Assembly (NCBI GenBank): GCA_020853615.1
Contig: JADYYO010000342.1
Coordinates: 3,172 to 67,171 of the forward strand
DNA length: 64,000 nt
Reading direction: 5' to 3'
Source: Thermomicrobiales bacterium
GTDB taxonomy: Bacteria; Chloroflexota; Chloroflexia; Thermomicrobiales; UBA6265
Positions 23,013 to 57,695 of this stretch are shown in pieces (position 1 is the stretch's first letter; every line of letters begins with the position of its first letter). Under the pieces are notes generated by a model that did no database searches, was not told where the DNA came from, and saw only the letters and a program-made list of their open reading frames with translations. Made by a program: the position numbers and the translations under genes.

Positions 23013-23091
23013 TCCGGTCGCGGGGTCCGGGCCATCGCCCGGGCCGCCTCCCGACGCTGCGAACCCTTCCCCTTCCCTCTGGAGCATCACC
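23013..23091 (+). repeat. intergenic repeat element copy A (hairpin + conserved 21-mer + SD)
   Basis: CCGGTCGCGGGG, hairpin CCGGGCcatcGCCCGG (23027-23042), core GCCTCCCGACGCTGCGAACCC (23046-23066), CT-rich tract, GGAG. Confidence 0.8.
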
Positions 23092-24872: not shown

Positions 24873-25040
24873 ATGCGACTCCGCCAGTACGTTCGGGACA
24901 ACCGCGATCACCTGACCGCCTACGTGCGCCAGGCGCTCGGCCGGCCCACCGTCAAGCTCACCACGTCCGATCTGGAAGACTGGATCCGGAACGATGAATC
25001 CCTGTATCTGGCGGCAAAGCGGGCGGGGGCGAACCCGTGA
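24873..25040 (+). CDS. hypothetical small protein (55 aa)
   Basis: AAGGA RBS; MRLRQYVRDNRDHLTAYVRQALGRPTVKL... Confidence 0.55.
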   Translation: MRLRQYVRDNRDHLTAYVRQALGRPTVKLTTSDLEDWIRNDESLYLAAKRAGANP

Positions 25041-25834
25041 TGCCCCCTTCCGTGACCGACCTTCCGGCCCGGCTCGAGCCTGCGGTTCGCGCGGTGATCG
25101 CCGCGCGCGATGCCGGCGAGCCTGGGATCCTGATGATCCGGAGCCCCGGGCTCGGGGCGAGCATGCTCGCGAGCCGGATCCCGACCATGATCGATCTCAC
25201 CGAGCACCAGCGGCGCTGGATCGCCGTCGAGCATGACGCGTCGACGTGGACGTGGGAGAGCAAGAGCCCCGCGCCGACCGGCGCGCCGTTCCAGGCGCCG
25301 CACTACACGATCAGCGCGCCCGCCATGGCCGCGCGCCCGCACCGGGCGCACGACGTGCGGTGTCTGAACCCGACCACGCCGCGGTGTCTCTGCGGGCTCG
25401 CGTCCGATCGCAGCGCCGGCGGGCACGTCGTGACGAAAGCGAGCGTGTGCGAGTTGGCGCGGTTTGGCGTCCTCTTGCTGGACGAGATCGAGGAATTCCA
25501 GCGGTCGACTCTCGAGGCCGCGCGCGAGCGGCTCACCCGGATGGGGCCCACCGCGCCGTTCGTCGTCGCGGCGGCGCGGCCCTGCCCGTGCGGATACGGC
25601 GCGCCGGAACCCGCGGGCTCGGCGTACTGGCGCGATTGCCAGTGCAGCGCCGACGCGATCGCGCGCCACGTCGCGCGCGTCCAGCGGCACGCCGGCATCC
25701 TGCGGCTGGTCCGGTCCGTGGTCCTGCCGACCAACGGGATCGCCAGCCGGCCCACCGAACCGGCCGGCGGCGGGCCCCGGTGCCCCGACCTGGCGACGAT
25801 CCGCGCCGCGATGGCGGCGGAGCGCGCGGCGTGA
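25037..25834 (+). CDS. ComM/YifB (Mg-chelatase-type) AAA+ -like protein, degenerate Walker A
   Basis: IRSPGLGASMLASRIP (vs GPPGSGKTMLA), APHYTIS (PHHTxS), FGVLLLDEIEEFQRSTLEAARERL, AARPCPCGY (NPCPCGY). Confidence 0.7.
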   Translation: MMPPSVTDLPARLEPAVRAVIAARDAGEPGILMIRSPGLGASMLASRIPTMIDLTEHQRRWIAVEHDASTWTWESKSPAPTGAPFQAPHYTISAPAMAARPHRAHDVRCLNPTTPRCLCGLASDRSAGGHVVTKASVCELARFGVLLLDEIEEFQRSTLEAARERLTRMGPTAPFVVAAARPCPCGYGAPEPAGSAYWRDCQCSADAIARHVARVQRHAGILRLVRSVVLPTNGIASRPTEPAGGGPRCPDLATIRAAMAAERAA

Positions 25835-29052: not shown

Positions 29053-29853
29053 ATGGAGATCCAACACTTCCCATACGCCCACCTGCGCGTCGCCGCGTGC
29101 AACCCGCGCGTCCAGATCGATCCCGCCGAGCTGCGCCAGCTGGCGCTGCACGTCGCGCGCGACGGCCTCTTGACGCCGCTCCGGGTGACGCCCGGCGGCG
29201 ACATCCTGGCCGGCCAGCGGCGCTGGCGCGCGATCGGGCTCGTGATCGCGTGGCGCGAGCATTTGGTCGACGGCGAGGATGGCGCGCAGCCCGACGAGCA
29301 TGCGCTGTTCGACATGCGGGCCCAAGCGCTGATCGGCGCGGTGCCGTGCGTCGTCGACGACGCCGGCGCCGCCCAGGCGCCGGTCCGCGCGCTCGCCGAG
29401 AACCTGCACCACGAGCCGATGAGCAGCTACGACACGGCCATGGCCTACGCCGCGCTGGCGGGCCCCGTCAACGAGCCGCGCCGGACGATGACCGAGCTTG
29501 CCCGCGAGACCGGGCGCAGCAAGAGCACCGTCTCGCGCATGCTGACCGCGTGGCGTCAGGCCGGCCCCGAGCTCCACGCCGCGTGGCAGGCGGGCCTGGC
29601 GTTCGAGCGCGTGCTCGCGCTGGCGGCGCTGCCGCTCGAGGCGCAGCGCGACGCGCTCGCTGGCGGTCACAAGAGTCACGGCCGGCCTGGGATCGAGGCC
29701 ACCAAGGCGGTGCTGCGCGAACTGCGCGAGACGCATGGCGACAGCCACCCGTACTCTGACGGCGCGATCGCCGCGCTGCGGTTCGTCGCCGGCGAGTTGC
29801 CGATGGACCAGTTCATCTCGACCATCAAGGCGGAAGTCGACGTCTCGCCATGA
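29053..29853 (+). CDS. ParB/Srx-fold N-terminal domain + HTH protein (ParB-like)
   Basis: LLTPLRVTPGGDILAGQRRWRA (GxRRxxA box), ENLHHEPMSSYDTA, HTH MTELARETGRSKSTVSRML; AGGAG RBS. Confidence 0.75.
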   Translation: MEIQHFPYAHLRVAACNPRVQIDPAELRQLALHVARDGLLTPLRVTPGGDILAGQRRWRAIGLVIAWREHLVDGEDGAQPDEHALFDMRAQALIGAVPCVVDDAGAAQAPVRALAENLHHEPMSSYDTAMAYAALAGPVNEPRRTMTELARETGRSKSTVSRMLTAWRQAGPELHAAWQAGLAFERVLALAALPLEAQRDALAGGHKSHGRPGIEATKAVLRELRETHGDSHPYSDGAIAALRFVAGELPMDQFISTIKAEVDVSP

Positions 29854-29892: not shown

Positions 29893-30105
29893 GTGACCAC
29901 TGAGAACCGCCCCGAGTGGAAACCCCACCGCGCAATCATCGCCGACCTGACGCCGAACCGCGCCACCGTCGTGCGCGTGCTGCCGCGCGGCGCGAAGGAC
30001 GCCGAGCACCGCCCTGACCAGCGGATGGTCGCCTCCGATGAGCCGATGTTCGTCGGTGATAGAGTGTGGATAACCGGACCCCAGGCCGTTGATATCGTGG
30101 GCTGA
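29893..30105 (+). CDS. hypothetical small protein
   Basis: GTG start with GGAGA RBS; TTENRPEWKPHRAIIADL... Confidence 0.55.
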   Translation: MTTENRPEWKPHRAIIADLTPNRATVVRVLPRGAKDAEHRPDQRMVASDEPMFVGDRVWITGPQAVDIVG

Positions 30106-43860: not shown

Positions 43861-43979
43861 CGTGGCGTCCTTCGGTTGAGAGTCCAGTTTCGGTCACGCG
43901 GGCGTTCCTCGAGCTCGGCCAGCGCGACGGTTCCACAGGTCATCCACACCCTGTGGACAACCGCGATCATCACGTTCAT
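43857..43979 (-). CDS. 40-aa ORF coupled by ATGA overlaps on both sides (excisionase/RDF-sized)
   Basis: MNVMIAVVHRVWMTCGTVALAELEERPRDRNWTLNRRTPR; its ATG overlaps the int stop and its stop overlaps the next ATG. Confidence 0.4.
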   Translation of the reverse strand: MNVMIAVVHRVWMTCGTVALAELEERPRDRNWTLNRRTPR

Positions 43980-44833
43980 CGACGTTCCTCGACCGGCGGC
44001 TCGAACATGGATTCGGCGACCCGGTCGATCGCCTCGCCGCGGACGTGGTCGACGTACTGCATCGCCGTCGACAGGTTGGCCCACTGCATGTGCTCCATCA
44101 GCTTCGGGAGCGCCTCGGCGTCGCCGGCGTGGGCGCGCAGGAACGTCACCGCGTAGGTTCGACGCAGCCGGTGCGGGTGCAGCCCGTCGATCCCACACCG
44201 TCCTCCCAGCCGCTTGAGTTGGCGCTGGACCTTCCGGGCCGCGCTCTGCAGCCGCACCTCCTCGTCCTTGGACGTCGGAACGAGCAGGTGCGCGACGGTA
44301 TCCCAGCCGCGCTCGTGCGCGAGCAGCTCGAGCCACGGCTTGAACGTCTTGAGCACGGTGAACTCGAGGTAGCGCCGCCCCTTCGCAACGAACGAGAGCC
44401 GGCCCGTAACGAGCGCGCTGACGATCTGCGCGCGCTGCATCCTCAGCACGTCGGCGTCGCGGAACCCGCGGTATGCCATCAACCCGATCACCGCGCGCAT
44501 CGGCGGTGTAAGATCCTTCGCCGCCCGCACCTCGAGCATGAGCCGCTGCAGCGGCTGGGCGTCGACCGGCACTTTCTCTTTCGCGCGCCGGGGCGGCGGC
44601 AAGCGGAACTCGCCCAACGCCTCGCGCAGCGCAGGGTCCACGGCGTAGTCCGCCCAGCGGCGGGCGGCCGCCCGCACCAACCGGCGCGTCTTCGGCGCGC
44701 CCCGCTTGAGCCGCTCGATCCAGCCGCCGTCCTCGGTCGCGCGCTTCGCGTGGTGGACGTAGATCGCGACCGTGCCGGGCTGGAGCCCGAACCGCCCCAG
44801 GTAGGTGCGGAAGCCGTCGAGCGTGGTGGCCAT
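43976..44833 (-). CDS. int: tyrosine recombinase / phage integrase
   Basis: C-terminal catalytic motifs GLHPHRLRRTYAVTFL (HxLRHT-type) and LMEHMQWANLSTAMQYV (GH..x..T..Y); start MATTLDGFRTYL (a GTG at 44845 is also possible). Confidence 0.85.
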   Translation of the reverse strand: MATTLDGFRTYLGRFGLQPGTVAIYVHHAKRATEDGGWIERLKRGAPKTRRLVRAAARRWADYAVDPALREALGEFRLPPPRRAKEKVPVDAQPLQRLMLEVRAAKDLTPPMRAVIGLMAYRGFRDADVLRMQRAQIVSALVTGRLSFVAKGRRYLEFTVLKTFKPWLELLAHERGWDTVAHLLVPTSKDEEVRLQSAARKVQRQLKRLGGRCGIDGLHPHRLRRTYAVTFLRAHAGDAEALPKLMEHMQWANLSTAMQYVDHVRGEAIDRVAESMFEPPVEERR

Positions 44834-44845
44834 GTCCGAAAACAC

Positions 44846-45353: not shown

Positions 45354-45568
45354 GCGCGCCCCTGCGCGGCGTGCCGCTGCTCGTGTCGGTGGTGACGTCG
45401 ATGTTTGCGCCACCGCCGCTGCGCGAGGCATTGCTGCAGCGCTCGGCGTGCAAACGCCTGCAGGAGATGGCGGAGGGCAATCCTGCGCTCGTCACGCTCC
45501 TTGGCGGCGTGATCGCCGAGCATCTGGCCGCGCACCACCTCGACGAGATCGGACTGCCCCGATGGTGA
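45350..45568 (+). CDS. hypothetical small protein (72 aa)
   Basis: GTGA overlap; VSAPLRGVPLLVSVVTSMFAPPPLREALLQRS... Confidence 0.5.
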   Translation: MSAPLRGVPLLVSVVTSMFAPPPLREALLQRSACKRLQEMAEGNPALVTLLGGVIAEHLAAHHLDEIGLPRW

Positions 45569-45993
45569 ACATGAACGCGATGATGAGCGCGATGACGGTG
45601 CTTGGGATGGTTGACGGCCCCGAGTTGCTGGTGACGTACGACGGCCACCGCCCGCTCGCGGTGGTCGCGCCGCTTTGCCCGATCACGACCACGACCCGCG
45701 CGCTCTACGACCGCACGCTCTACGACCGCACGCTCGTGGTCGACGCGATCGCGCGCCCCCGGCCGCAGGTGCTGCCCACCGCCGTGCTGATGGCGGCCGC
45801 GTTGGCGTCGACGCCGACCGACATCCTGCCTCGGCGGCAGGGCGGGCTCGATCCGCACCTTGATCGCCGCCACGCGATCGAGGCGGCACGCAAGGCCGAG
45901 GCGCCGGCTCAGCCGAGCGCGCCTGGCGCCGGCGTGGGCGTCAGCGAGGCGCGCCGGCGGCGCCGGGCCGCGAAGCGCAAGAGGGGGTTCTAG
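45565..45993 (+). CDS. hypothetical protein (142 aa) with basic C-terminus
   Basis: GTGA overlap; VNMNAMMSAMTVLGMVDGPELLVTYDG...; ends EARRRRRAAKRKRGF. Confidence 0.55.
   Translation: MNMNAMMSAMTVLGMVDGPELLVTYDGHRPLAVVAPLCPITTTTRALYDRTLYDRTLVVDAIARPRPQVLPTAVLMAAALASTPTDILPRRQGGLDPHLDRRHAIEAARKAEAPAQPSAPGAGVGVSEARRRRRAAKRKRGF
45702..45735 (+). repeat. 15-bp tandem repeat GCTCTACGACCGCAC x2.3 (encodes LYDRT-LYDRT)
   Basis: Read directly at 45702-45735. Confidence 0.85.
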
Positions 45994-46301
45994 TGGAGTC
46001 GCTTGCCCAGCAGCTGCGGGACACCGTCCGCAAGGGCCTCCCCATCCACCAGCGGATCGAGCTCGAGCGCCACCTGGCCGGGCTGTCGGGCTCGCACTGC
46101 GCGCGCGCGATCGGCTGGTCGCACACGCTCTGGCAAGAGCTCGAGGCCGGCCAGCGGGAGCCCCGCCACGAGGAGCTGCCGCGGATCGCCAAGATCCTAG
46201 GGATCAGCGTCCGCCGGCTGACCGGCGGCCACGCCAAGAAGACGCCCGGCTGGAAGCCGATCGGCCGGCCCCGCACCCGCAAGGCGATCACCGCGGCATG
46301 A
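45993..46301 (+). CDS. XRE/Cro-CI-type helix-turn-helix regulator
   Basis: GTG overlapping the TAG stop; LSGSHCARAIGWSHTLWQELEAGQREPRHEELPRIAKILGISVRRL. Confidence 0.7.
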   Translation: MESLAQQLRDTVRKGLPIHQRIELERHLAGLSGSHCARAIGWSHTLWQELEAGQREPRHEELPRIAKILGISVRRLTGGHAKKTPGWKPIGRPRTRKAITAA

Positions 46302-47203
46302 GCGAAGGCAAGTACACCAAGGTGGGCACCGCGCTGTTCGCGTGGGAGCCCTACCTGGCCGTCCGGCGCGAGAGTTCGGATGCCGCGCACCTGTGGCTCG
46401 CGCTCTACGCGTCCGCGCCCGCGAAGCTGCTCATCCCCGGCCTCTGGATGGGCGGCGTGGGCACGATGGCCGACGCGAGCCGCCTGACGTTCCACGAGTG
46501 CGTCCACGCGCTCGACCTGCTGTGCGAGCGCGGTCTGGCCGAGTTCGACCCCAAGACCCAGTTGCTGCGCCTGACGGCCCTGCCCGACAAGAGCGAGGCC
46601 GCGCCCAACCAGGCCTGCCTGCTCGGCTGGTGGAGCCGCCGGCAGGGCCTGCCCGACTGCGGTGTCCGCGAACGCCACCTCGACCTGATGGCGTGGTTGA
46701 CCCTGCCGATCAAGCCCTCGAAGCGCTCCACCGGGCTCGAGATGCAGCGCGCCTGGGACAACACCTGGGGCGCGGCACTGCACGCTCGTGCAGGTCTTTC
46801 CTTCCCAGCTTCTCAGGTTCCGGTTCTGGGTGCCGCAAAACCAAACCAGCTCGACCTGTTGTCCAGCCCACCAAATCGAGACGGTGGGGGGGACCGTCAG
46901 GGGGACGGTCGGGGGGACCGTCCGGAAGAGGTAGAGGTATTGGTAGAGGAGAGAGGGAGAGGTGCAGGAGAGGGAGACCCGGACCACCGGCTCTGGGCGG
47001 CCGTCCTGGCGTCCGCCTCGGAGGGCATCACGGTCCAGAACTTCGACATGTGGCTGGCGCCGCTCCAGTGCCAGCGCGAGGACACCCAGCTCCGGGTGAT
47101 CGCCCCGTCCGAGTTCCACGCGCAGTGGGTGAAGAACAACTACCTGCGCCAGCTGCAAGCCGCCGTCGACCAGCAGGCCCCGGGCCTGCGCATCGCCATC
47201 TGA
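46298..47203 (+). CDS. replication initiator-like protein with DnaA-domain-I-like C-terminus
   Basis: ATGA overlap. C-terminus LWAAVLASASEGITVQNFDMWLAPLQCQREDTQLRVIAPSEFHAQWVKNNYLRQLQAAV matches the DnaA N-terminal domain pattern. Low-GC3 linker carries DNA repeats. Confidence 0.65.
   Translation: MSEGKYTKVGTALFAWEPYLAVRRESSDAAHLWLALYASAPAKLLIPGLWMGGVGTMADASRLTFHECVHALDLLCERGLAEFDPKTQLLRLTALPDKSEAAPNQACLLGWWSRRQGLPDCGVRERHLDLMAWLTLPIKPSKRSTGLEMQRAWDNTWGAALHARAGLSFPASQVPVLGAAKPNQLDLLSSPPNRDGGGDRQGDGRGDRPEEVEVLVEERGRGAGEGDPDHRLWAAVLASASEGITVQNFDMWLAPLQCQREDTQLRVIAPSEFHAQWVKNNYLRQLQAAVDQQAPGLRIAI
46885..46922 (+). repeat. three tandem ~12-bp iteron-like repeats GGGGG(G)ACSGTC, followed by purine-rich lower-GC tract to ~46975
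   Basis: GGGGGGGACCGTC A GGGGGACGGTC GGGGGGACCGTC, then GAAGAGGTAGAGGTATTGGTAGAGGAGAGAGGGAGAGG. Confidence 0.7.
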
Positions 47204-47225: not shown

Positions 47226-48293
47226 ATGAACGAGACCGACCAGCGCCATCCCGTCAACAGCATCGTCGCGACCGACCACGAGATCCACATCCGCCTCGGC
47301 GGGCTGGCGGTGGCGATCCGCCTTGGCGCAGACGCCACCGACACCGCGGTGATCAACGAGGATCTGTACCTGCCGCTCTACAGCGTGGTTTCGCGCGAGA
47401 TCGCGAAGCGCATCAAGCTTGATGGCAAGTGGCCACAGCGCTTCCGTGAGTTCTTCGAGGCCGACCCCGAGTTCATCAGGAGCTTCGGCGGCGCCATCGA
47501 CGCCTCGATCGCCACCGCTGCCGCGAATGCGCCAGCGACCGACGATGAGCTTGCGGCGCTGTTGCGCGGCGAGAGCCTTCCGCGCGGACGGCGCGTGCTG
47601 GTGATGCAGGCGGCGCTGATCCGGCTCGAGTGGCGGCTCGGGGAGCAGTTGCCGCCGCAGATGCGCGAGATCGGGGCGCGCCTCGAGTCGCTGGAGCGCA
47701 ACATCCAGCAGCTCCGGTCGAACGTCGACGCCAACCTGACGACGCGGATCAGCAAGCTCGAGAGCGACATCACGGCGCTCAAGGTGCAGAAGGGCCACCA
47801 AGGCGACGTCAACGCCGAGCACAAAAAGGCCATCTCCGAGCTCTCGGTCGCGGTCGCCGGCCTCGATCGGGCGGCGCCGCCCGAGCTGGCGTCGCTCGTC
47901 GAGCTGGTGACCGGCCAGCAGGACCAGATCGACAAGCTGCAGGCGATGCTCGAGCCGCGCATCCCCGCCGGTGTGGTCGACGGGCGCCCGGTCGCCGGCC
48001 CGGAGATCGGGATCGCGCTCGACGGCGAGATCGCGCGGGCGATCGACCGCCAGGATCTCGCGACCCGCACGCACGTCGACGAGGCGGTCCGCAGGCTGGC
48101 CGCGACGATCCGCCAGTACGTCCGCGACCAGGTCCAGCAGGCGCTGCGCCGCCGGCCCTCGGCGCTCCGCCGCGTCTGGGACGCGCTCGCCGATCGCGGC
48201 GCGCCGTCCGCGCCCGCACCCGCGCAGGAGCCGGCGGCGGTTCCGCCGGCGATCGCCGAGCTGGCCGAGCAGGCGCTCCGGCGGGGGCGGTGA
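47226..48293 (+). CDS. coiled-coil protein (355 aa)
   Basis: Full ORF MNETDQRHPVNSIVATDHEIHIRLGG...; central heptad-like region (LESLERNIQQLRSNVDANLTTRISKLESDITALK). Confidence 0.75.
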   Translation: MNETDQRHPVNSIVATDHEIHIRLGGLAVAIRLGADATDTAVINEDLYLPLYSVVSREIAKRIKLDGKWPQRFREFFEADPEFIRSFGGAIDASIATAAANAPATDDELAALLRGESLPRGRRVLVMQAALIRLEWRLGEQLPPQMREIGARLESLERNIQQLRSNVDANLTTRISKLESDITALKVQKGHQGDVNAEHKKAISELSVAVAGLDRAAPPELASLVELVTGQQDQIDKLQAMLEPRIPAGVVDGRPVAGPEIGIALDGEIARAIDRQDLATRTHVDEAVRRLAATIRQYVRDQVQQALRRRPSALRRVWDALADRGAPSAPAPAQEPAAVPPAIAELAEQALRRGR

Positions 48294-48298
48294 CCCCG

Positions 48299-49888
48299 AT
48301 GGACGCGTTGCCCGACGGGCCGATCGACGTCGAGATCTTCTCGTGCGCCGGCGGCATGGCCGAGGGGTTCCGGCGCGCCGGGATCACGTTCCACATGGCC
48401 GTCGACATGGCCAAGGACCACTGCGACAGCTACGAGCGCAACCTCGGCCATCGGCCGGTGCAGATGGACGCCCGCGACCTGCTGCGGATGGCGCGCCTGG
48501 GCTGGCGCGTGCCCGTGCGGCTGCTCGTCGCCGATCCGCCCTGCACGCCGTGGTCGCGCGCCGGCAAGCGCCAGGGCGTCAGCGACGACCGCGACATGCT
48601 CCGGCAGACCGCCGAGATCATCGGGCTGCTCCGGCCCCGGGCCTACCTGATCGGCAACGTGCCGGGGCTCGAGGACGCCAACAACCTGGCGGTCGTGCAG
48701 GACGTGATCGGCGGGCTCGCGCGGTGGGGATACTGCGTCAGCGACTTCGCCGCGCTCGACGCGGCCGACTACGGCGTGCCCCAGCACCGCGTGCGGCCGT
48801 TCTGGTTCGGGCACCGCCACGGCCCGTGCCTGCGGTGGCCGTTGCCGACGCACGGCGACCCGTGCGACATCAAGGACACGCTGCCCGGCCTGCCGATGCC
48901 CGCGCCGTGGGTGACGTGCGGGCAGGCGCTCGGTCACCTGTCGCCGCGCGAGCTGGGGCGCATGGTCTGGCTGCGGAAGCGGCCGGCGGCGCCGGCGTCG
49001 GCGCTCCGCGCGAGCGTACCCGAGCGCCCGGCCCGGACCGTCTGCGCCTCGAGCTTGGGCGACGGGAACGTGATCAACTACAGCCGCAAGCACGCGCCGT
49101 CCGCCGGCAACCAGCCCGCCAAGACCGTGCGGACCGGCGGCCGAGGCGGCCACCAGGCCGTCGTCCTCGAGAACACCAACGACTCGGACCCGGGCCAGCC
49201 GGCCAAGACGATCGTCGCGGCCCGGCGAGGCACGCAGGCGATGACGCTGCACGACACGCCCAACCACCCGCCCGCGATGGCGTTTGGCGGCCGCGATGGC
49301 GGCGTCGACCGCACGCACCAGCAAAACAAGCCCGCGCGCGCGATCACGACGCAGACCGGCGACCATGGTGTGCTGGTGCTCGCGATCGAGGGCGCCCGGC
49401 GGCGGGTGCCGCAGTCGGAGCGCGTCGTCGCGACCGATGGCCCGGCGACGACGCTCCAGGCGCGGGAGGATCGGCAGGGCACCGGCATGGTGATGGAGTG
49501 GCCGTGGGCGCGGCCGTCGACGGCGATCATGGCCGATCCCCGGCTGGGCCAGCCGGGCCACAAGGACAAGGCCTGGAAGGGCAAGGGCGGCCAGCGCGCG
49601 CGCGCGAAGCAGCGCGGCGTGCTCTTAAGCGAGCGCGCCGGCGCGATCCTGCAGGGGTTCCCCGAGACCTGGGTGTTCTCGGGCGTCACGAAGAAGACGC
49701 GGTGGAGCCAGATCGGCCAAGCGATGCCGCCGCCCCTCGCGCACGCGGTCGCGCAGAGCATCGTCGCGCAGCTTGCCGCCACCGTCGACGACGGGCCGCC
49801 CGAGAACTACGTGGGCTGGGTGCCCCCGGTCGCGCGCACCGAGTCCGAGGCGCGCGAGCAGCTCGTGCTGGTCGGGGGATCGCCATGA
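48299..49888 (+). CDS. dcm: DNA (cytosine-5) methyltransferase-like, long repeat-containing target-recognition region
   Basis: Motif I IFSCAGGMAEGF, IV DPPCTPWSRAG, VI IGNVPGL (ENV Glu replaced by Gly), VIII QHRVRPFWFG, IX/X LQGFPETWVF...GQAMPPPLA. Confidence 0.8.
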   Translation: MDALPDGPIDVEIFSCAGGMAEGFRRAGITFHMAVDMAKDHCDSYERNLGHRPVQMDARDLLRMARLGWRVPVRLLVADPPCTPWSRAGKRQGVSDDRDMLRQTAEIIGLLRPRAYLIGNVPGLEDANNLAVVQDVIGGLARWGYCVSDFAALDAADYGVPQHRVRPFWFGHRHGPCLRWPLPTHGDPCDIKDTLPGLPMPAPWVTCGQALGHLSPRELGRMVWLRKRPAAPASALRASVPERPARTVCASSLGDGNVINYSRKHAPSAGNQPAKTVRTGGRGGHQAVVLENTNDSDPGQPAKTIVAARRGTQAMTLHDTPNHPPAMAFGGRDGGVDRTHQQNKPARAITTQTGDHGVLVLAIEGARRRVPQSERVVATDGPATTLQAREDRQGTGMVMEWPWARPSTAIMADPRLGQPGHKDKAWKGKGGQRARAKQRGVLLSERAGAILQGFPETWVFSGVTKKTRWSQIGQAMPPPLAHAVAQSIVAQLAATVDDGPPENYVGWVPPVARTESEAREQLVLVGGSP

Positions 49889-50790
49889 CCGACCTGCACA
49901 CGTGGGATCCGGCGAAGCTCGCGGCGGTGCCGCTGCTCAAGTGGGTCGGCGGCAAGAGCGCGCTCCTGCCCGAGCTCCGCAAGCGCCTCCCGACGCGGTT
50001 CGGGACGTACTACGAGCCGTTCGCCGGCGGCGCCGCCCTGTTCTTCGCGCTGGCGGCCGCGGTCGTGCGCCGGGATGCTTATCCGTGGAGCCACATCTCG
50101 GATCTGAACCCGCACCTGATCGGCGCGTACCGCCTCGTGCGCGACCATCCGTCGGAGGTGTTGGCCGCACTGGTCGACTACGAACGGCGCCACGCCACCG
50201 TGCGTCCATCGAAGCGATACCCGGCGCCCGCGCTCTACTACCAGGTCCGCGAGATCTGGAATGCCGGGGCGTTCACGACCGATCACCAGCACGCGGCCGC
50301 GTTCCTGTACCTCAACCGGACGTGCTTCAACGGCATCTGGCGGGTCAACAAGGAGGGCAAGTTCAACGTGCCGGCCGGGCGCTACAAGCGGCCGCGGATC
50401 GCGGACGAACGGCGGCTCCGGGTGTGCGCCGCCGCGCTTGCGGGCGCGCGCGTGGCGGTCGAGCGGTGGCAGGACGCGATCGAGGGCATCACCAAGAACG
50501 ATCTGGTCTACTTCGATCCGCCGTACGTGCCGCTGTCCGAGACCGCGAACTTCACGGCGTACACGCAGCAGGGCTTCGGGAAAGACGACCACGCGGAGCT
50601 GGCGGAGGCTGCGCACGCGCTCGTCCGCAAGGGCGTCCACGTGATCATCAGCAACAGCGACACGCCGGCGGTCCGCAAGCTCTACAAGGGCATGCGGATC
50701 AGCCGGGTGAAGATGGCGCGCTCGCTCTCGTGCAAGGGTGACCGGCGCCAGCCCGTGGGGGAGCTGCTGATCGTCGGAGGCCGACGGTGA
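49885..50790 (+). CDS. dam: Dam-family DNA N6-adenine methyltransferase
   Basis: ATGA overlap; LLKWVGGKSALLPEL, YYEPFAGGAALFF, CFNGIWRVN, VYFDPPYVPLS. Confidence 0.85.
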   Translation: MTDLHTWDPAKLAAVPLLKWVGGKSALLPELRKRLPTRFGTYYEPFAGGAALFFALAAAVVRRDAYPWSHISDLNPHLIGAYRLVRDHPSEVLAALVDYERRHATVRPSKRYPAPALYYQVREIWNAGAFTTDHQHAAAFLYLNRTCFNGIWRVNKEGKFNVPAGRYKRPRIADERRLRVCAAALAGARVAVERWQDAIEGITKNDLVYFDPPYVPLSETANFTAYTQQGFGKDDHAELAEAAHALVRKGVHVIISNSDTPAVRKLYKGMRISRVKMARSLSCKGDRRQPVGELLIVGGRR

Positions 50791-51419
50791 TCCTGCGAGC
50801 GGCCGCACGCGACGAGGTGCTCTCACTGTTCGAGCGGCACCATGCCTACGCGGGCATTTCACGCTCGACGACGTACCTGTTTGCTGTGGAGGAACCGTGC
50901 GGCATCGTCGCAGCGTTCGCGTGGCAGCCCCCCCCGCCCGGCGCCGCCAAGAGCGTCTGCGCCGAGGCACCTCATGGCGTGCTGGCCCTGTCCCGCATGG
51001 TCGCGGTGCCAAGGACGGATCGGGCGCTGCGGCACATCTCGAAGCCGCTTCGCCAGCAGATGCGCCGCATGATCGATCGGACGCGATGGCCTGTGCTCGT
51101 GACCTACTCCGACGAGGGACTGGGGCACACGGGCCACGTCTACAAGTGCTCTGGCTGGCAGCCGACGATCCGGAGCCAGCGACCGCAGTTCGTGGATGCT
51201 GATGGCGTTCGCCGGTCAGCTTACGCGAACGGCCGTAGCGGCCACGCTCATCTCCGGTCGATCGGCACGGCCACGATTCAGCGCTGGGAGCACTGGTCGT
51301 GCGAACGCGGTGACGCCGCCCGCTGGATGGAAGCGCATGGGTGGCAGCGCGTGGCCGTGCCCGGCAAGCAATGGCGCTCGGGCAGTCCCGCGTTCACGTG
51401 GGTGCGGAGCCTCGCATGA
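50787..51419 (+). CDS. Mom-like / GNAT-fold DNA-modification protein candidate
   Basis: GTGA overlap; ERHHAYAG, VLALSRMVAVP, VLVTYSDEGLGHTGHVYKCSGWQPT resembles the Mom-family YaD..GH.G.iY.a.gW core. Confidence 0.45.
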   Translation: MILRAAARDEVLSLFERHHAYAGISRSTTYLFAVEEPCGIVAAFAWQPPPPGAAKSVCAEAPHGVLALSRMVAVPRTDRALRHISKPLRQQMRRMIDRTRWPVLVTYSDEGLGHTGHVYKCSGWQPTIRSQRPQFVDADGVRRSAYANGRSGHAHLRSIGTATIQRWEHWSCERGDAARWMEAHGWQRVAVPGKQWRSGSPAFTWVRSLA

Positions 51420-57311: not shown

Positions 57312-57695
57312 ATGGGTTCTGAGTCGAAAGCCGAAGCCGCCGCCGCCCAAGCCACGCTGGCTCGCGACTTCGTGATGGCGCGCTGCGCGGCCGCTCGCGC
57401 GTCGCTGCAAGCCGCGCTCGAGTCGATCGACCAGGTGCTGCTCGCGTTCGTCGCACCCGACACCGACCCGAAGGGCAAGGATCGCACGCAGGCGCTCGAG
57501 GACGCCGACGCCGCGCTGGGCGACGCGGCCAGCTCGATCCACGCGGCGATGTCCGAGTTCGGCGAGATCGATCCCGCGGAGGGCGAGCCGGAGGCCGACG
57601 ACGACGACGACGACGACGACGAGGACGAGGACGAGGACGACGACGACGACGAGGACGACGAGGAGCAACCGCGCCGGCGCGGAGGCCGTCGGTGA
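57312..57695 (+). CDS. helical protein with extreme poly-Asp/Glu tail
   Basis: GAGGA RBS; MGSESKAEAAAAQATLARDFVMARC...EADDDDDDDDEDEDEDDDDDEDDEEQPRRRGGRR. Confidence 0.7.
   Translation: MGSESKAEAAAAQATLARDFVMARCAAARASLQAALESIDQVLLAFVAPDTDPKGKDRTQALEDADAALGDAASSIHAAMSEFGEIDPAEGEPEADDDDDDDDEDEDEDDDDDEDDEEQPRRRGGRR
57597..57665 (+). repeat. GAC/GAG trinucleotide repeat tract (23 acidic codons)
   Basis: gacgacgacgacgacgacgacgacgaggacgaggacgaggacgacgac... Confidence 0.85.

Follow-up and report, generated by a model that had tools for sequence, protein, structure and literature searches.

The DNA analysed here, hereafter the window, is a 64-kb stretch of contig JADYYO010000342.1 from an assembly assigned to a Thermomicrobiales bacterium, and the gene under study is an open reading frame (ORF) at positions 46298–47203 of its plus strand. 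The ORF starts with ATG at 46298, ends with TGA at 47201–47203, encodes a protein of 301 amino acids (aa) and overlaps with its start the TGA of an upstream helix-turn-helix (HTH) gene (ATGA). Its GC contents at the three codon positions (0.71/0.50/0.86) follow the pattern of a real gene, and the placement of the ORF in an earlier reading made from the letters alone (the sequence-only reading) was thus confirmed. The upstream gene (45993–46301, plus strand) encodes a Cro/CI-type HTH regulator (Pfam HTH_31, E = 1e-7; PHROG transcriptional repressor families), and the order of both genes is shared with four loci carrying relatives of the ORF (L001, L009, L011 and L013). Within the ORF, three segments were distinguished in silico, namely a region encoding a predicted winged-helix domain with a helical extension (46325–46792, plus strand, aa ~10–165), a segment encoding a linker predicted to be disordered (46793–46975, plus strand, aa ~166–226) and a region encoding a DnaA domain I module (46976–47200, plus strand, aa 227–301). 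The product very probably acts as a replication initiator, and one with a true DnaA domain I.

Domain architecture of the putative initiator

The sequence-only reading had described the last ~70 aa as resembling the N-terminal domain of DnaA. This resemblance turned out to be a significant match and not a mere pattern: the Pfam family DnaA_N (PF11638) was detected at aa 231–290 (E = 1.9e-11 for the whole protein), with the whole protein scoring 44 bits and the domain by itself 48 bits at a gathering cutoff of 24.6. In phmmer searches against the PDB, domain I of Escherichia coli DnaA (2E0G) was matched with E = 4.2e-7 over 58 aa ungapped, and its Bacillus subtilis counterpart (4TPS) with E = 0.009. 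Only positions 1–64 of the NCBIfam DnaA model TIGR00362 were matched, at 28 bits and a cutoff of 343.9, and neither a Pfam match to Bac_DnaA or Bac_DnaA_C nor a Walker A motif was found in the 301 aa. When the 78-aa C-terminal domain was used by itself as query, a word-indexed homology search returned no match. As judged from its sequence, the protein is not a DnaA, being devoid of the AAA+ domain and of domain IV.

Structure prediction with AlphaFold2 was based on an alignment of 150 sequences and yielded a mean predicted local distance difference test (pLDDT) score of 86, with values above 93 for aa 10–165 and aa 227–301 (above 94 within the N-terminal domain) and of 43–51 for the linker. 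This model superseded an earlier, poor one (pLDDT 55) obtained from an alignment of six sequences. In the predicted structure, aa 227–301 show the order alpha-alpha-beta-beta-alpha-beta and a KH-like fold. Superposition on the DnaA domain I fold, which the sequence-only reading had named as a check, was obtained with Foldseek against the PDB, where 4tps_D (B. subtilis DnaA domain I) was matched with a template modelling (TM) score of 0.73 and a root-mean-square deviation of 1.5 Å over 71 columns; domain I structures from E. coli (2e0g) and Helicobacter pylori (2wp0) were further top matches. By profile match and modelled fold, the C-terminal ~70 aa represent a genuine DnaA domain I.

Domain I of E. 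coli forms a head-to-head dimer via L5, W6, Q8, C9, L10 and L33, contacts DnaB through E21 and F46, and contacts DiaA through E21, W25, N44, F46 and W50 (PMC5448010). The equivalents of W6, W25, F46 and W50 in the window protein are W233, W252, F273 and W277, whereas E21 and N44 correspond to the differing residues N248 and S271. Among ten family members possessing DnaA_N, the dimerisation Trp (W6 in E. coli, W233 in the window protein) is the most constant residue.

The N-terminal domain, which would be the iteron-binding part of the protein, was modelled as a winged helix to which three helices are appended. In the PDB, Foldseek matches comprised MarR/ArsR/CodY-type winged helices as well as a plasmid Rep-DNA complex, and those in BFVD included a 'putative replicon initiation protein' (E = 1.5e-6) and a 'Replisome organizer' (E = 4.4e-4), in addition to a 'DnaA N-terminal domain containing protein', replication initiators and a model of the GpO N-terminus. 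No Pfam sequence match to Phage_rep_O or Phage_rep_org_N was detected in the initiator.

Five close homologs of the 301-aa protein were found. Furthermore, a profile of six N-terminal sequences, searched against 1.84 billion representatives, detected 1365 proteins at E ≤ 1e-3, 155 of them at E ≤ 1e-30, each standing for a cluster at 50% identity. Among the best 150 of these 1365 matches, the domain is nearly always N-terminal and the proteins are mostly 260–460 aa long. The N-terminal family was seen only on metagenomic phage-like contigs, and tblastn searches of GenBank phages and PLSDB plasmids with the full-length protein matched the DnaA_N part alone, the N-terminal family being found in no cultured phage or plasmid. 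DnaA_N is present in 10 of 131 scanned family members (~7%). Clustering of the last 110 aa of 148 members resulted in C-terminal types of 97, 12 and 10 members (the last being the DnaA_N type, including the window protein) and smaller ones, so that at least six alternative C-termini recur on one N-terminal domain. In these comparisons the family is modular, combining a constant head of the DNA-binding type with exchangeable tails, as would be anticipated for a tail serving as a module that docks to the host or to a partner. The gene of the window is accordingly listed here as a minority variant, the predicted docking tail of which is DnaA domain I. The majority C-terminal type (97 of 148; L003–L006 and P0004-type proteins) has no Pfam match, comes after a conserved 'P.L.LVP' motif and is probably an alternative docking domain.

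A candidate origin within the linker-coding DNA

The segment encoding the disordered linker also holds the DNA elements of a candidate origin. Its GC content at third codon positions is 0.57–0.70, compared to 0.90–1.00 in the flanking domains. Three-way nucleotide identity between the window, L001 and L011 amounts to 0.92–0.97 over positions 46859–47008 and to 0.62–0.90 in the rest of the gene, and identical third codon positions were counted at 41 of 43 sites inside this block versus 213 of 259 outside (Fisher p = 0.025).

Four tandem 12-bp repeats, regarded as candidate iterons, are located at 46880–46927 (GACGGTGGGGGG / GACCGTCAGGGG / GACGGTCGGGGG / GACCGTCCGGAA). They share the palindromic core GACSGTC in alternating orientation, and the array is also present in L001 and L011. 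Other clades possess 12-bp-periodic arrays at the same place, mostly with palindromic cores and read in other frames, such as GATACSGTATCC in three copies followed by GGATCCC in four copies (L004), GGACATGTNNCG (L009), GGGTAYC (L010) and CATGGTGGGGGT (L015). A core ACSGT is common to clades, its reading frame differing from that of the window.

A purine-rich and easily melted tract, the candidate DNA-unwinding element, follows at 46924–46977 (plus strand). It is the sole 50-mer of the window with at least 84% purines and contains the longest homopurine run of the window (18 nt, 46945–46962). Of all 60-mers in the 64 kb, just one is less stable than that starting at 46924, for which -85.2 kcal/mol was calculated compared to a mean of -101.7 (standard deviation 5.1). 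Moreover, the 18-mer GAGAGGTGCAGGAGAGGG at 46957–46974 is conserved at the DNA level: it is identical in seven loci, the proteins of which are 35–86% identical, and the match to L009 in this region extends to 24 perfect nucleotides. In the clade of the window the 18-mer is translated in phase 2 (GRGAGEGD), and in L009, L013, L014 and L015 in phase 1 (GEVQER), which shows that the DNA is conserved and not the peptide.

At the boundary between the DNA encoding the N-terminal domain and that encoding the linker, a hairpin (CTGCACGCTCGTGCAG, 46778–46793, plus strand) followed by a T-rich run was observed. It is partly conserved in L001 and L011, and the scan found three such sites, 1.2 being expected.

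Perfect DnaA boxes (TTDTCCACA) were found in the linker DNA of eight of the ten more distant relatives, adjoining the repeats. These boxes (in L003, L004 with two, L005, L006, L009, L013, L014 and L015, nine in total) are the only perfect ones in ~77 kb of loci, ~0.08 being expected per 64 kb as calculated for the window. In the four DnaA_N-clade loci with a box, it lies 148–151 bp upstream of the 18-mer and in two different codon phases. The linker peptide 'VDNS' of majority-clade members (L003–L006, P0004) is the translation of TGTGGATAAC. Counts of the peptides that DnaA boxes leave in the proteins of the family proved too noisy for use.

In the clade of the window, no DnaA box is present at the canonical position ~149 bp upstream of the 18-mer, and these alignments indicate that the subclade of the window has lost the box kept by other DnaA_N-clade members. 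A degenerate 9-mer (TTGTCCAGC, 46859–46867, plus strand) agrees with the box at 7 of 9 positions and is not significant alone; its counterpart in L011 (TTGTCCACC) reaches 8 of 9. As a DnaA box of the window's own linker the 9-mer was rejected, agreement at 7 of 9 positions being at chance level (0.38 expected per 270 bp).

Only two perfect DnaA boxes occur elsewhere in the window, where 0.08 are expected and none of 100 shuffles reaches two. One of them (TTATCCACA, 30065–30073, minus strand) is intergenic and lies beside the least stable 60-mer of the window (30088), and the other (TTGTCCACA, 43940–43960) is paired in inverted orientation with TCATCCACA in the stretch separating the integrase gene from the gene that comes next. 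They may act as DnaA sites or as a second origin, or may constitute an operator palindrome.

In relatives, the DnaA box is followed by the iterons and then by a tract of the unwinding type, all inside the initiator gene, and for this reason the arrangement is interpreted as the anatomy of an iteron origin. At the level of sequence, the window gene displays the features of an origin located in its own gene, i.e., repeats, an easily melted tract and conservation of the DNA itself. An origin inside the linker-coding DNA is probable, and the block at 46.86–46.98 kb is the best candidate for the origin of a phage of ~80 kb. The view of the sequence-only reading that the protein is an origin-binding initiator agrees with this anatomy, comprising a winged-helix head, a putative docking tail and an in-gene candidate origin.

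Known systems, proposed mechanism and alternatives

The same three-part design was found in gp4 of Brevibacillus phage Jenst / SecTim467 (KT151957, ALA07507.1), a 'putative replication (replicon) initiation protein' and the best BFVD structural match of the window initiator (the hit with E = 1.5e-6 mentioned above). SecTim467 gp4 consists of an N-terminal winged HTH (Pfam HTH_36) and a C-terminal DnaA_N domain, and its linker DNA contains the iteron TCAAAATCTG in four to five copies, three perfect DnaA boxes and an AT-rich stretch. The window gene differs from it in having no DnaA box and a tract that is purine-rich instead of AT-rich, and SecTim467 itself differs by its low-GC Firmicute host, its size of 130 kb and a ParM neighbour. 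We know of no experimental study of SecTim467 gp4 or of the window initiator.

Plasmid proteins of Rhodobacterales annotated as 'DnaA N-terminal domain-containing' (e.g., WP_035709704 of Haematobacter pOT1-1) likewise carry DnaA_N at the extreme C-terminus. The one example scanned has 235 aa, with a sub-threshold Crp-type HTH match preceding the C-terminal DnaA_N, and homologs were found in 289 plasmids, whose records often begin with this gene. The plasmid tail is 35% identical to that of the window protein (E = 2e-11), the C-terminal 82 aa alone being alignable; in contrast, the N-termini are unrelated (hhalign probability 0.1%), and the proteins belong to plasmids and not to phages. The one Rhodobacterales locus examined (L008) contained no perfect DnaA box. 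On the grounds of gene position and host genera, we take the 289 plasmid proteins to be the published 'DnaA-like' replicase type. A passage of PMC9025767, citing Petersen et al. 2011, describes a 'DnaA-like' replicon type that was named after its replicases. The window initiator shares the domain architecture of these plasmid replicases and, in sequence comparison, is not a member of their family. The Rickettsia plasmid protein DALP (PMC4316617) also has its domain order in common with the window initiator and resides on a mobile replicon. The fusion architecture is therefore not new, being preceded by cultured Brevibacillus phages and by plasmids of Rhodobacterales and Rickettsia.

In phage lambda, the origin, made up of direct repeats plus an easily melted tract, is located inside the gene of the O protein. 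With the predicted organisation of the window initiator, lambda O and SPP1 G38P share the combination of an N-terminal origin-binding domain, a C-terminal recruitment domain and an in-gene origin, as well as the position in an early operon beside a cro/cI-type regulator; SPP1 oriL lies within gene 38 (PMC6316719). They differ in that the C-terminus of the window protein is a DnaA domain I and not a domain binding P or G39P, that no recognisable loader or helicase gene follows the window initiator, and that no sequence similarity to Phage_rep_O or Phage_rep_org_N exists. With chromosomal DnaA domain I, the tail shares sequence, fold, the dimer-interface Trp and an aromatic residue at F46, whereas domains III and IV (AAA+ and DNA-binding) are lacking and domain I is C-terminal instead of N-terminal. 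The helicase loader DciA, with its DANL domain, is a further non-DnaA protein with a DnaA-N-like fold, proposed to aid DnaB binding (PMC9825169); in contrast to DciA, the window domain matches Pfam DnaA_N itself and has no DciA-type C-terminal extension.

It is proposed, with a probability of about 0.6 for the reading including its whole mechanism, that the product of the ORF serves a temperate phage of ~80 kb as its replication initiator ('replisome organiser') and is comparable to lambda O or SPP1 G38P. The identification as an initiator is based on the site of the gene in a conserved early operon, where it immediately follows a cro/cI-like HTH gene, on replication proteins being the best viral fold matches and on the modular C-termini. 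We infer DNA binding, origin function and all protein contacts of the C-terminal domain as follows. The winged-helix domain would bind, probably as dimers, the four palindromic repeats spaced by 12 bp (46880–46927) inside its own gene, and the duplex would open at the adjoining purine-rich tract of low stability (46924–46977). The domain I modules of the origin-bound protomers would then form a docking surface for other proteins, most likely by pairing head-to-head via the conserved Trp, both mutually and with domain I of host DnaA, which in most relatives would sit on its own box ~150 bp upstream. A platform of several domain I modules, like the one holding DnaB at oriC, would result, and the host loader would place the host helicase on the opened tract, possibly aided by the product of the gene at 47226–48293. 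Pairing of the tail with domain I of host DnaA is a tentative element of this scheme, with somewhat less than even odds; cooperation with DnaA is favoured because boxes accompany DnaA_N initiators in two unrelated lineages, i.e., this family and SecTim467.

Several points weigh against this interpretation. All support is computational and derives from sequence and predicted structure, and the host (Thermomicrobiales) is assigned through binning of a metagenome-assembled genome (MAG) only. The N-terminal aa 1–165 have no sequence match to described initiator families in Pfam, PHROG or NCBIfam. Short 12-bp tandem arrays are common in a window of 72.5% GC (165 rows in Tandem Repeats Finder (TRF) at a low threshold), and GACSGTC is not enriched over the window; for this reason the iteron claim rests on position, conservation and neighbouring elements, and repeat statistics, by which the arrays were not singled out, were dropped as proof. 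The window's own linker contains no credible DnaA box, so that cooperation with DnaA is extrapolated from relatives, and boxes are also present in family members without DnaA_N (L003–L006), box and domain thus not being strictly linked. Furthermore, the equivalent of E21 is Asn (N248), and the position of F46 is variable in the clade (F/Y/M/L/P). Finally, an AAA+ ORF similar to ComM/Mg-chelatase lies 21 kb from the initiator gene (24998–25834, plus strand; Pfam Mg_chelatase, E = 3e-17; PDB ComM 8rxd, E = 4e-9). Its Walker B motif is intact (LLLDEIEEF) and its Walker A motif degenerate (SPGLGAS, no Lys), and it may represent a pseudo-ATPase or an unusual helicase-like phage protein.

The statement of the sequence-only reading that no helicase or loader gene is visible nearby held in part. 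The Walker A motif GxxxxGK[ST] occurs in no coding-like frame of the 64 kb, DnaB, DnaC and primase were absent from Pfam scans of ~40 window ORFs, and no P-loop protein was found within 6 kb of the initiator gene in L003–L007. The statement has to be qualified with respect to the degenerate AAA+ ORF and to the gene directly 3' of the initiator (47226–48293, plus strand), encoding a coiled-coil protein without Walker A motif that is a possible partner or adaptor. Its product has no significant match in Pfam, PHROG, NCBIfam or the PDB, the best E-values (about 1e-3 to 1e-2) being at chance level. The C-terminal ~50–90 aa are kept in the downstream genes of L001, L011, L013, L014 and, weakly, L009, i.e., in every DnaA_N-clade locus examined, and are absent from other clades (not conserved in L003–L007 or L010). 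The product could therefore be a partner or adaptor of the DnaA_N tail. The loader P of phage lambda is not an ATPase either, showing that a loader need not be one, and for this reason the phage may still encode an adaptor.

The sequence-only reading had proposed that the C-terminal domain I binds host DnaB directly, so that the phage origin would need neither host DnaA nor a phage-encoded loader. As loading that bypasses both, this proposal found no support, and direct DnaB binding without DnaA is considered rather unlikely, with the best chance in the clade of the window, where the box is missing. It would account for the presence of the F46, W25 and W50 equivalents, for the lack of a P-loop helicase or loader in 64 kb and for the missing DnaA box of the subclade, which fits independence of DnaA; moreover, binding to the four iterons would bring domain I modules together in an array, F46 of E. 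coli domain I contacts DnaB (PMC5448010), and a DnaA-N-like domain was proposed to aid the binding of DciA to DnaB (PMC9825169). However, the positions contacting DnaB are not conserved, as described above for E21 and F46, and it is the dimerisation Trp that is kept. DnaA boxes accompany DnaA_N initiators in L009, L013–L015 and SecTim467, E. coli domain I alone binds DnaB weakly and loading requires domain III and DnaC (PMC5448010), and the conserved non-ATPase gene downstream could encode an adaptor. Domain I might also be a portable plug, by which an unrelated origin binder recruits host DnaA or DnaB through protein mimicry at an origin independent of DnaA boxes. This reading, considered because the subclade of the window lost the DnaA box and kept the domain I tail, is held to be unlikely. 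If true, a DNA-encoded recruitment signal would have been replaced by a protein-encoded one, and the downstream non-ATPase gene might be a new P-like adaptor.

Two further explanations dispense with initiation altogether. Passages of PMC5448010 and PMC4776307 present domain I as a known target of inhibitors, namely SirA and the prophage protein YfdR, and together with the conserved dimerisation Trp this would suit a decoy that poisons DnaA oligomers or titrates partners and thereby stops host replication, the winged helix being regulatory. Such a role is very improbable, since it leaves unexplained the conserved in-gene repeats, the DnaA box and the unwinding-type tract, the exchange of C-termini behind an N-terminal domain that stays constant and the 289 Rhodobacterales plasmids with the same domain order, often in the first gene of the record. 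Even less credence is given to an ordinary transcription factor with a dimerisation tail, whose linker repeats would be low-complexity coding sequence produced by slippage, with no origin in the gene. MarR/ArsR-like fold matches, the many short tandem repeats of the GC-rich window and an origin function deduced from sequence would be compatible with it. This explanation is contradicted by the 18-mer and the DnaA box being kept at fixed spacing in different reading frames, by the linker being the most conserved DNA of the gene despite encoding disordered protein, by its coincidence with an extreme purine bias and a stability minimum, and by replication proteins being the best viral fold matches.

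Phage context and significance of the initiator family

The phage origin of the element, assumed in the sequence-only reading, was substantiated by related contigs. The closest homolog of the initiator is encoded on a contig of 72.4 kb that agrees with the window in gene order, a homolog at 42% identity on an 84.8 kb contig, and more distant relatives on four IMG/VR contigs of 75–86 kb; the L010 contig contains Mu-like portal and capsid genes. Taken together, syntenic or related copies are located on metagenomic or IMG/VR contigs of 72–86 kb with lysin and integrase genes. The product of 47226–48293 is 100% identical to the hypothetical protein IT338_17495 of a Thermomicrobiales MAG, which is encoded on a contig of 80,077 bp. 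Based on these contigs, the window is interpreted as most of a phage or prophage of ~80 kb.

In the vicinity of the initiator gene, a 3D/peptidoglycan-binding lysin gene, an integrase gene, the HTH_31 regulator, the coiled-coil ORF and DNA-modification genes were identified. The tyrosine integrase of the same element (43976–44845, minus strand; Pfam Phage_integrase, E = 5e-9) is syntenic in L001 and L009 and suggests a temperate-phage context. The GC content of 72.5% holds throughout the window, no tRNA was found in the 64 kb, GC skew was uninformative, and a promoter and terminator scan around the initiator gene gave nothing usable. The majority of the ~40 ORFs scanned with Pfam and PHROG had no match, as is typical for a novel phage.

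Further features of the window were recorded. Consecutive genes at 48290–51419 (plus strand) encode a C5 cytosine methylase, a D12 (Dam-type) adenine methylase and a Mom-like protein, suggesting heavy anti-restriction modification of the phage DNA; in L009, an extra radical-SAM gene is located among the C5/D12/Mom-like genes. The ORF at 29053–29853 (plus strand) encodes a ParB N-terminal domain and a winged HTH, for which a partition, nuclease or small-terminase-like role is possible. Two genes 5' of the initiator, a 15-bp tandem repeat (ACGACCGCACGCTCT; 45691–45735 in ORF 45562–45993, plus strand; 2.9 copies, 93% matches, TRF score 74) codes for 'LYDRT' repeats. A CGA tandem of 22 copies (57596–57661 in ORF 57372–57695, plus strand; TRF score 104) codes for a long, acidic Asp/Glu stretch (DDDDDDDDEDEDEDDDDDEDDEE) located C-terminally in a small protein, for which a role as DNA mimic or histone-like binder is possible. 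The divergent intergenic region at 21–23.6 kb, from which minus- and plus-strand gene blocks diverge, contains few ORFs with a weaker coding signal and, at 23062–23080, a 17-nt homopyrimidine run with a further stability minimum; it may be a regulatory or packaging region.

For a large and so far unannotated family of phage early proteins (1365 clusters, no Pfam or PHROG model), the analysis proposes both a function and the position of the origin. Apparently conserved peptides of the linker, such as VDNS, LST and GEVQER, would accordingly be read as translated DnaA boxes and origin DNA. Furthermore, origin binders that are unrelated to one another repeatedly carry DnaA domain I as an exchangeable C-terminal module, in phages of two lineages and in plasmids of Rhodobacterales and Rickettsia. 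Such fusions represent natural minimal systems for domain I alone, in which DnaA dimerisation may be set against helicase recruitment, and they extend the question of what domain I does beyond E. coli, including bacteria that possess DciA instead of DnaC.

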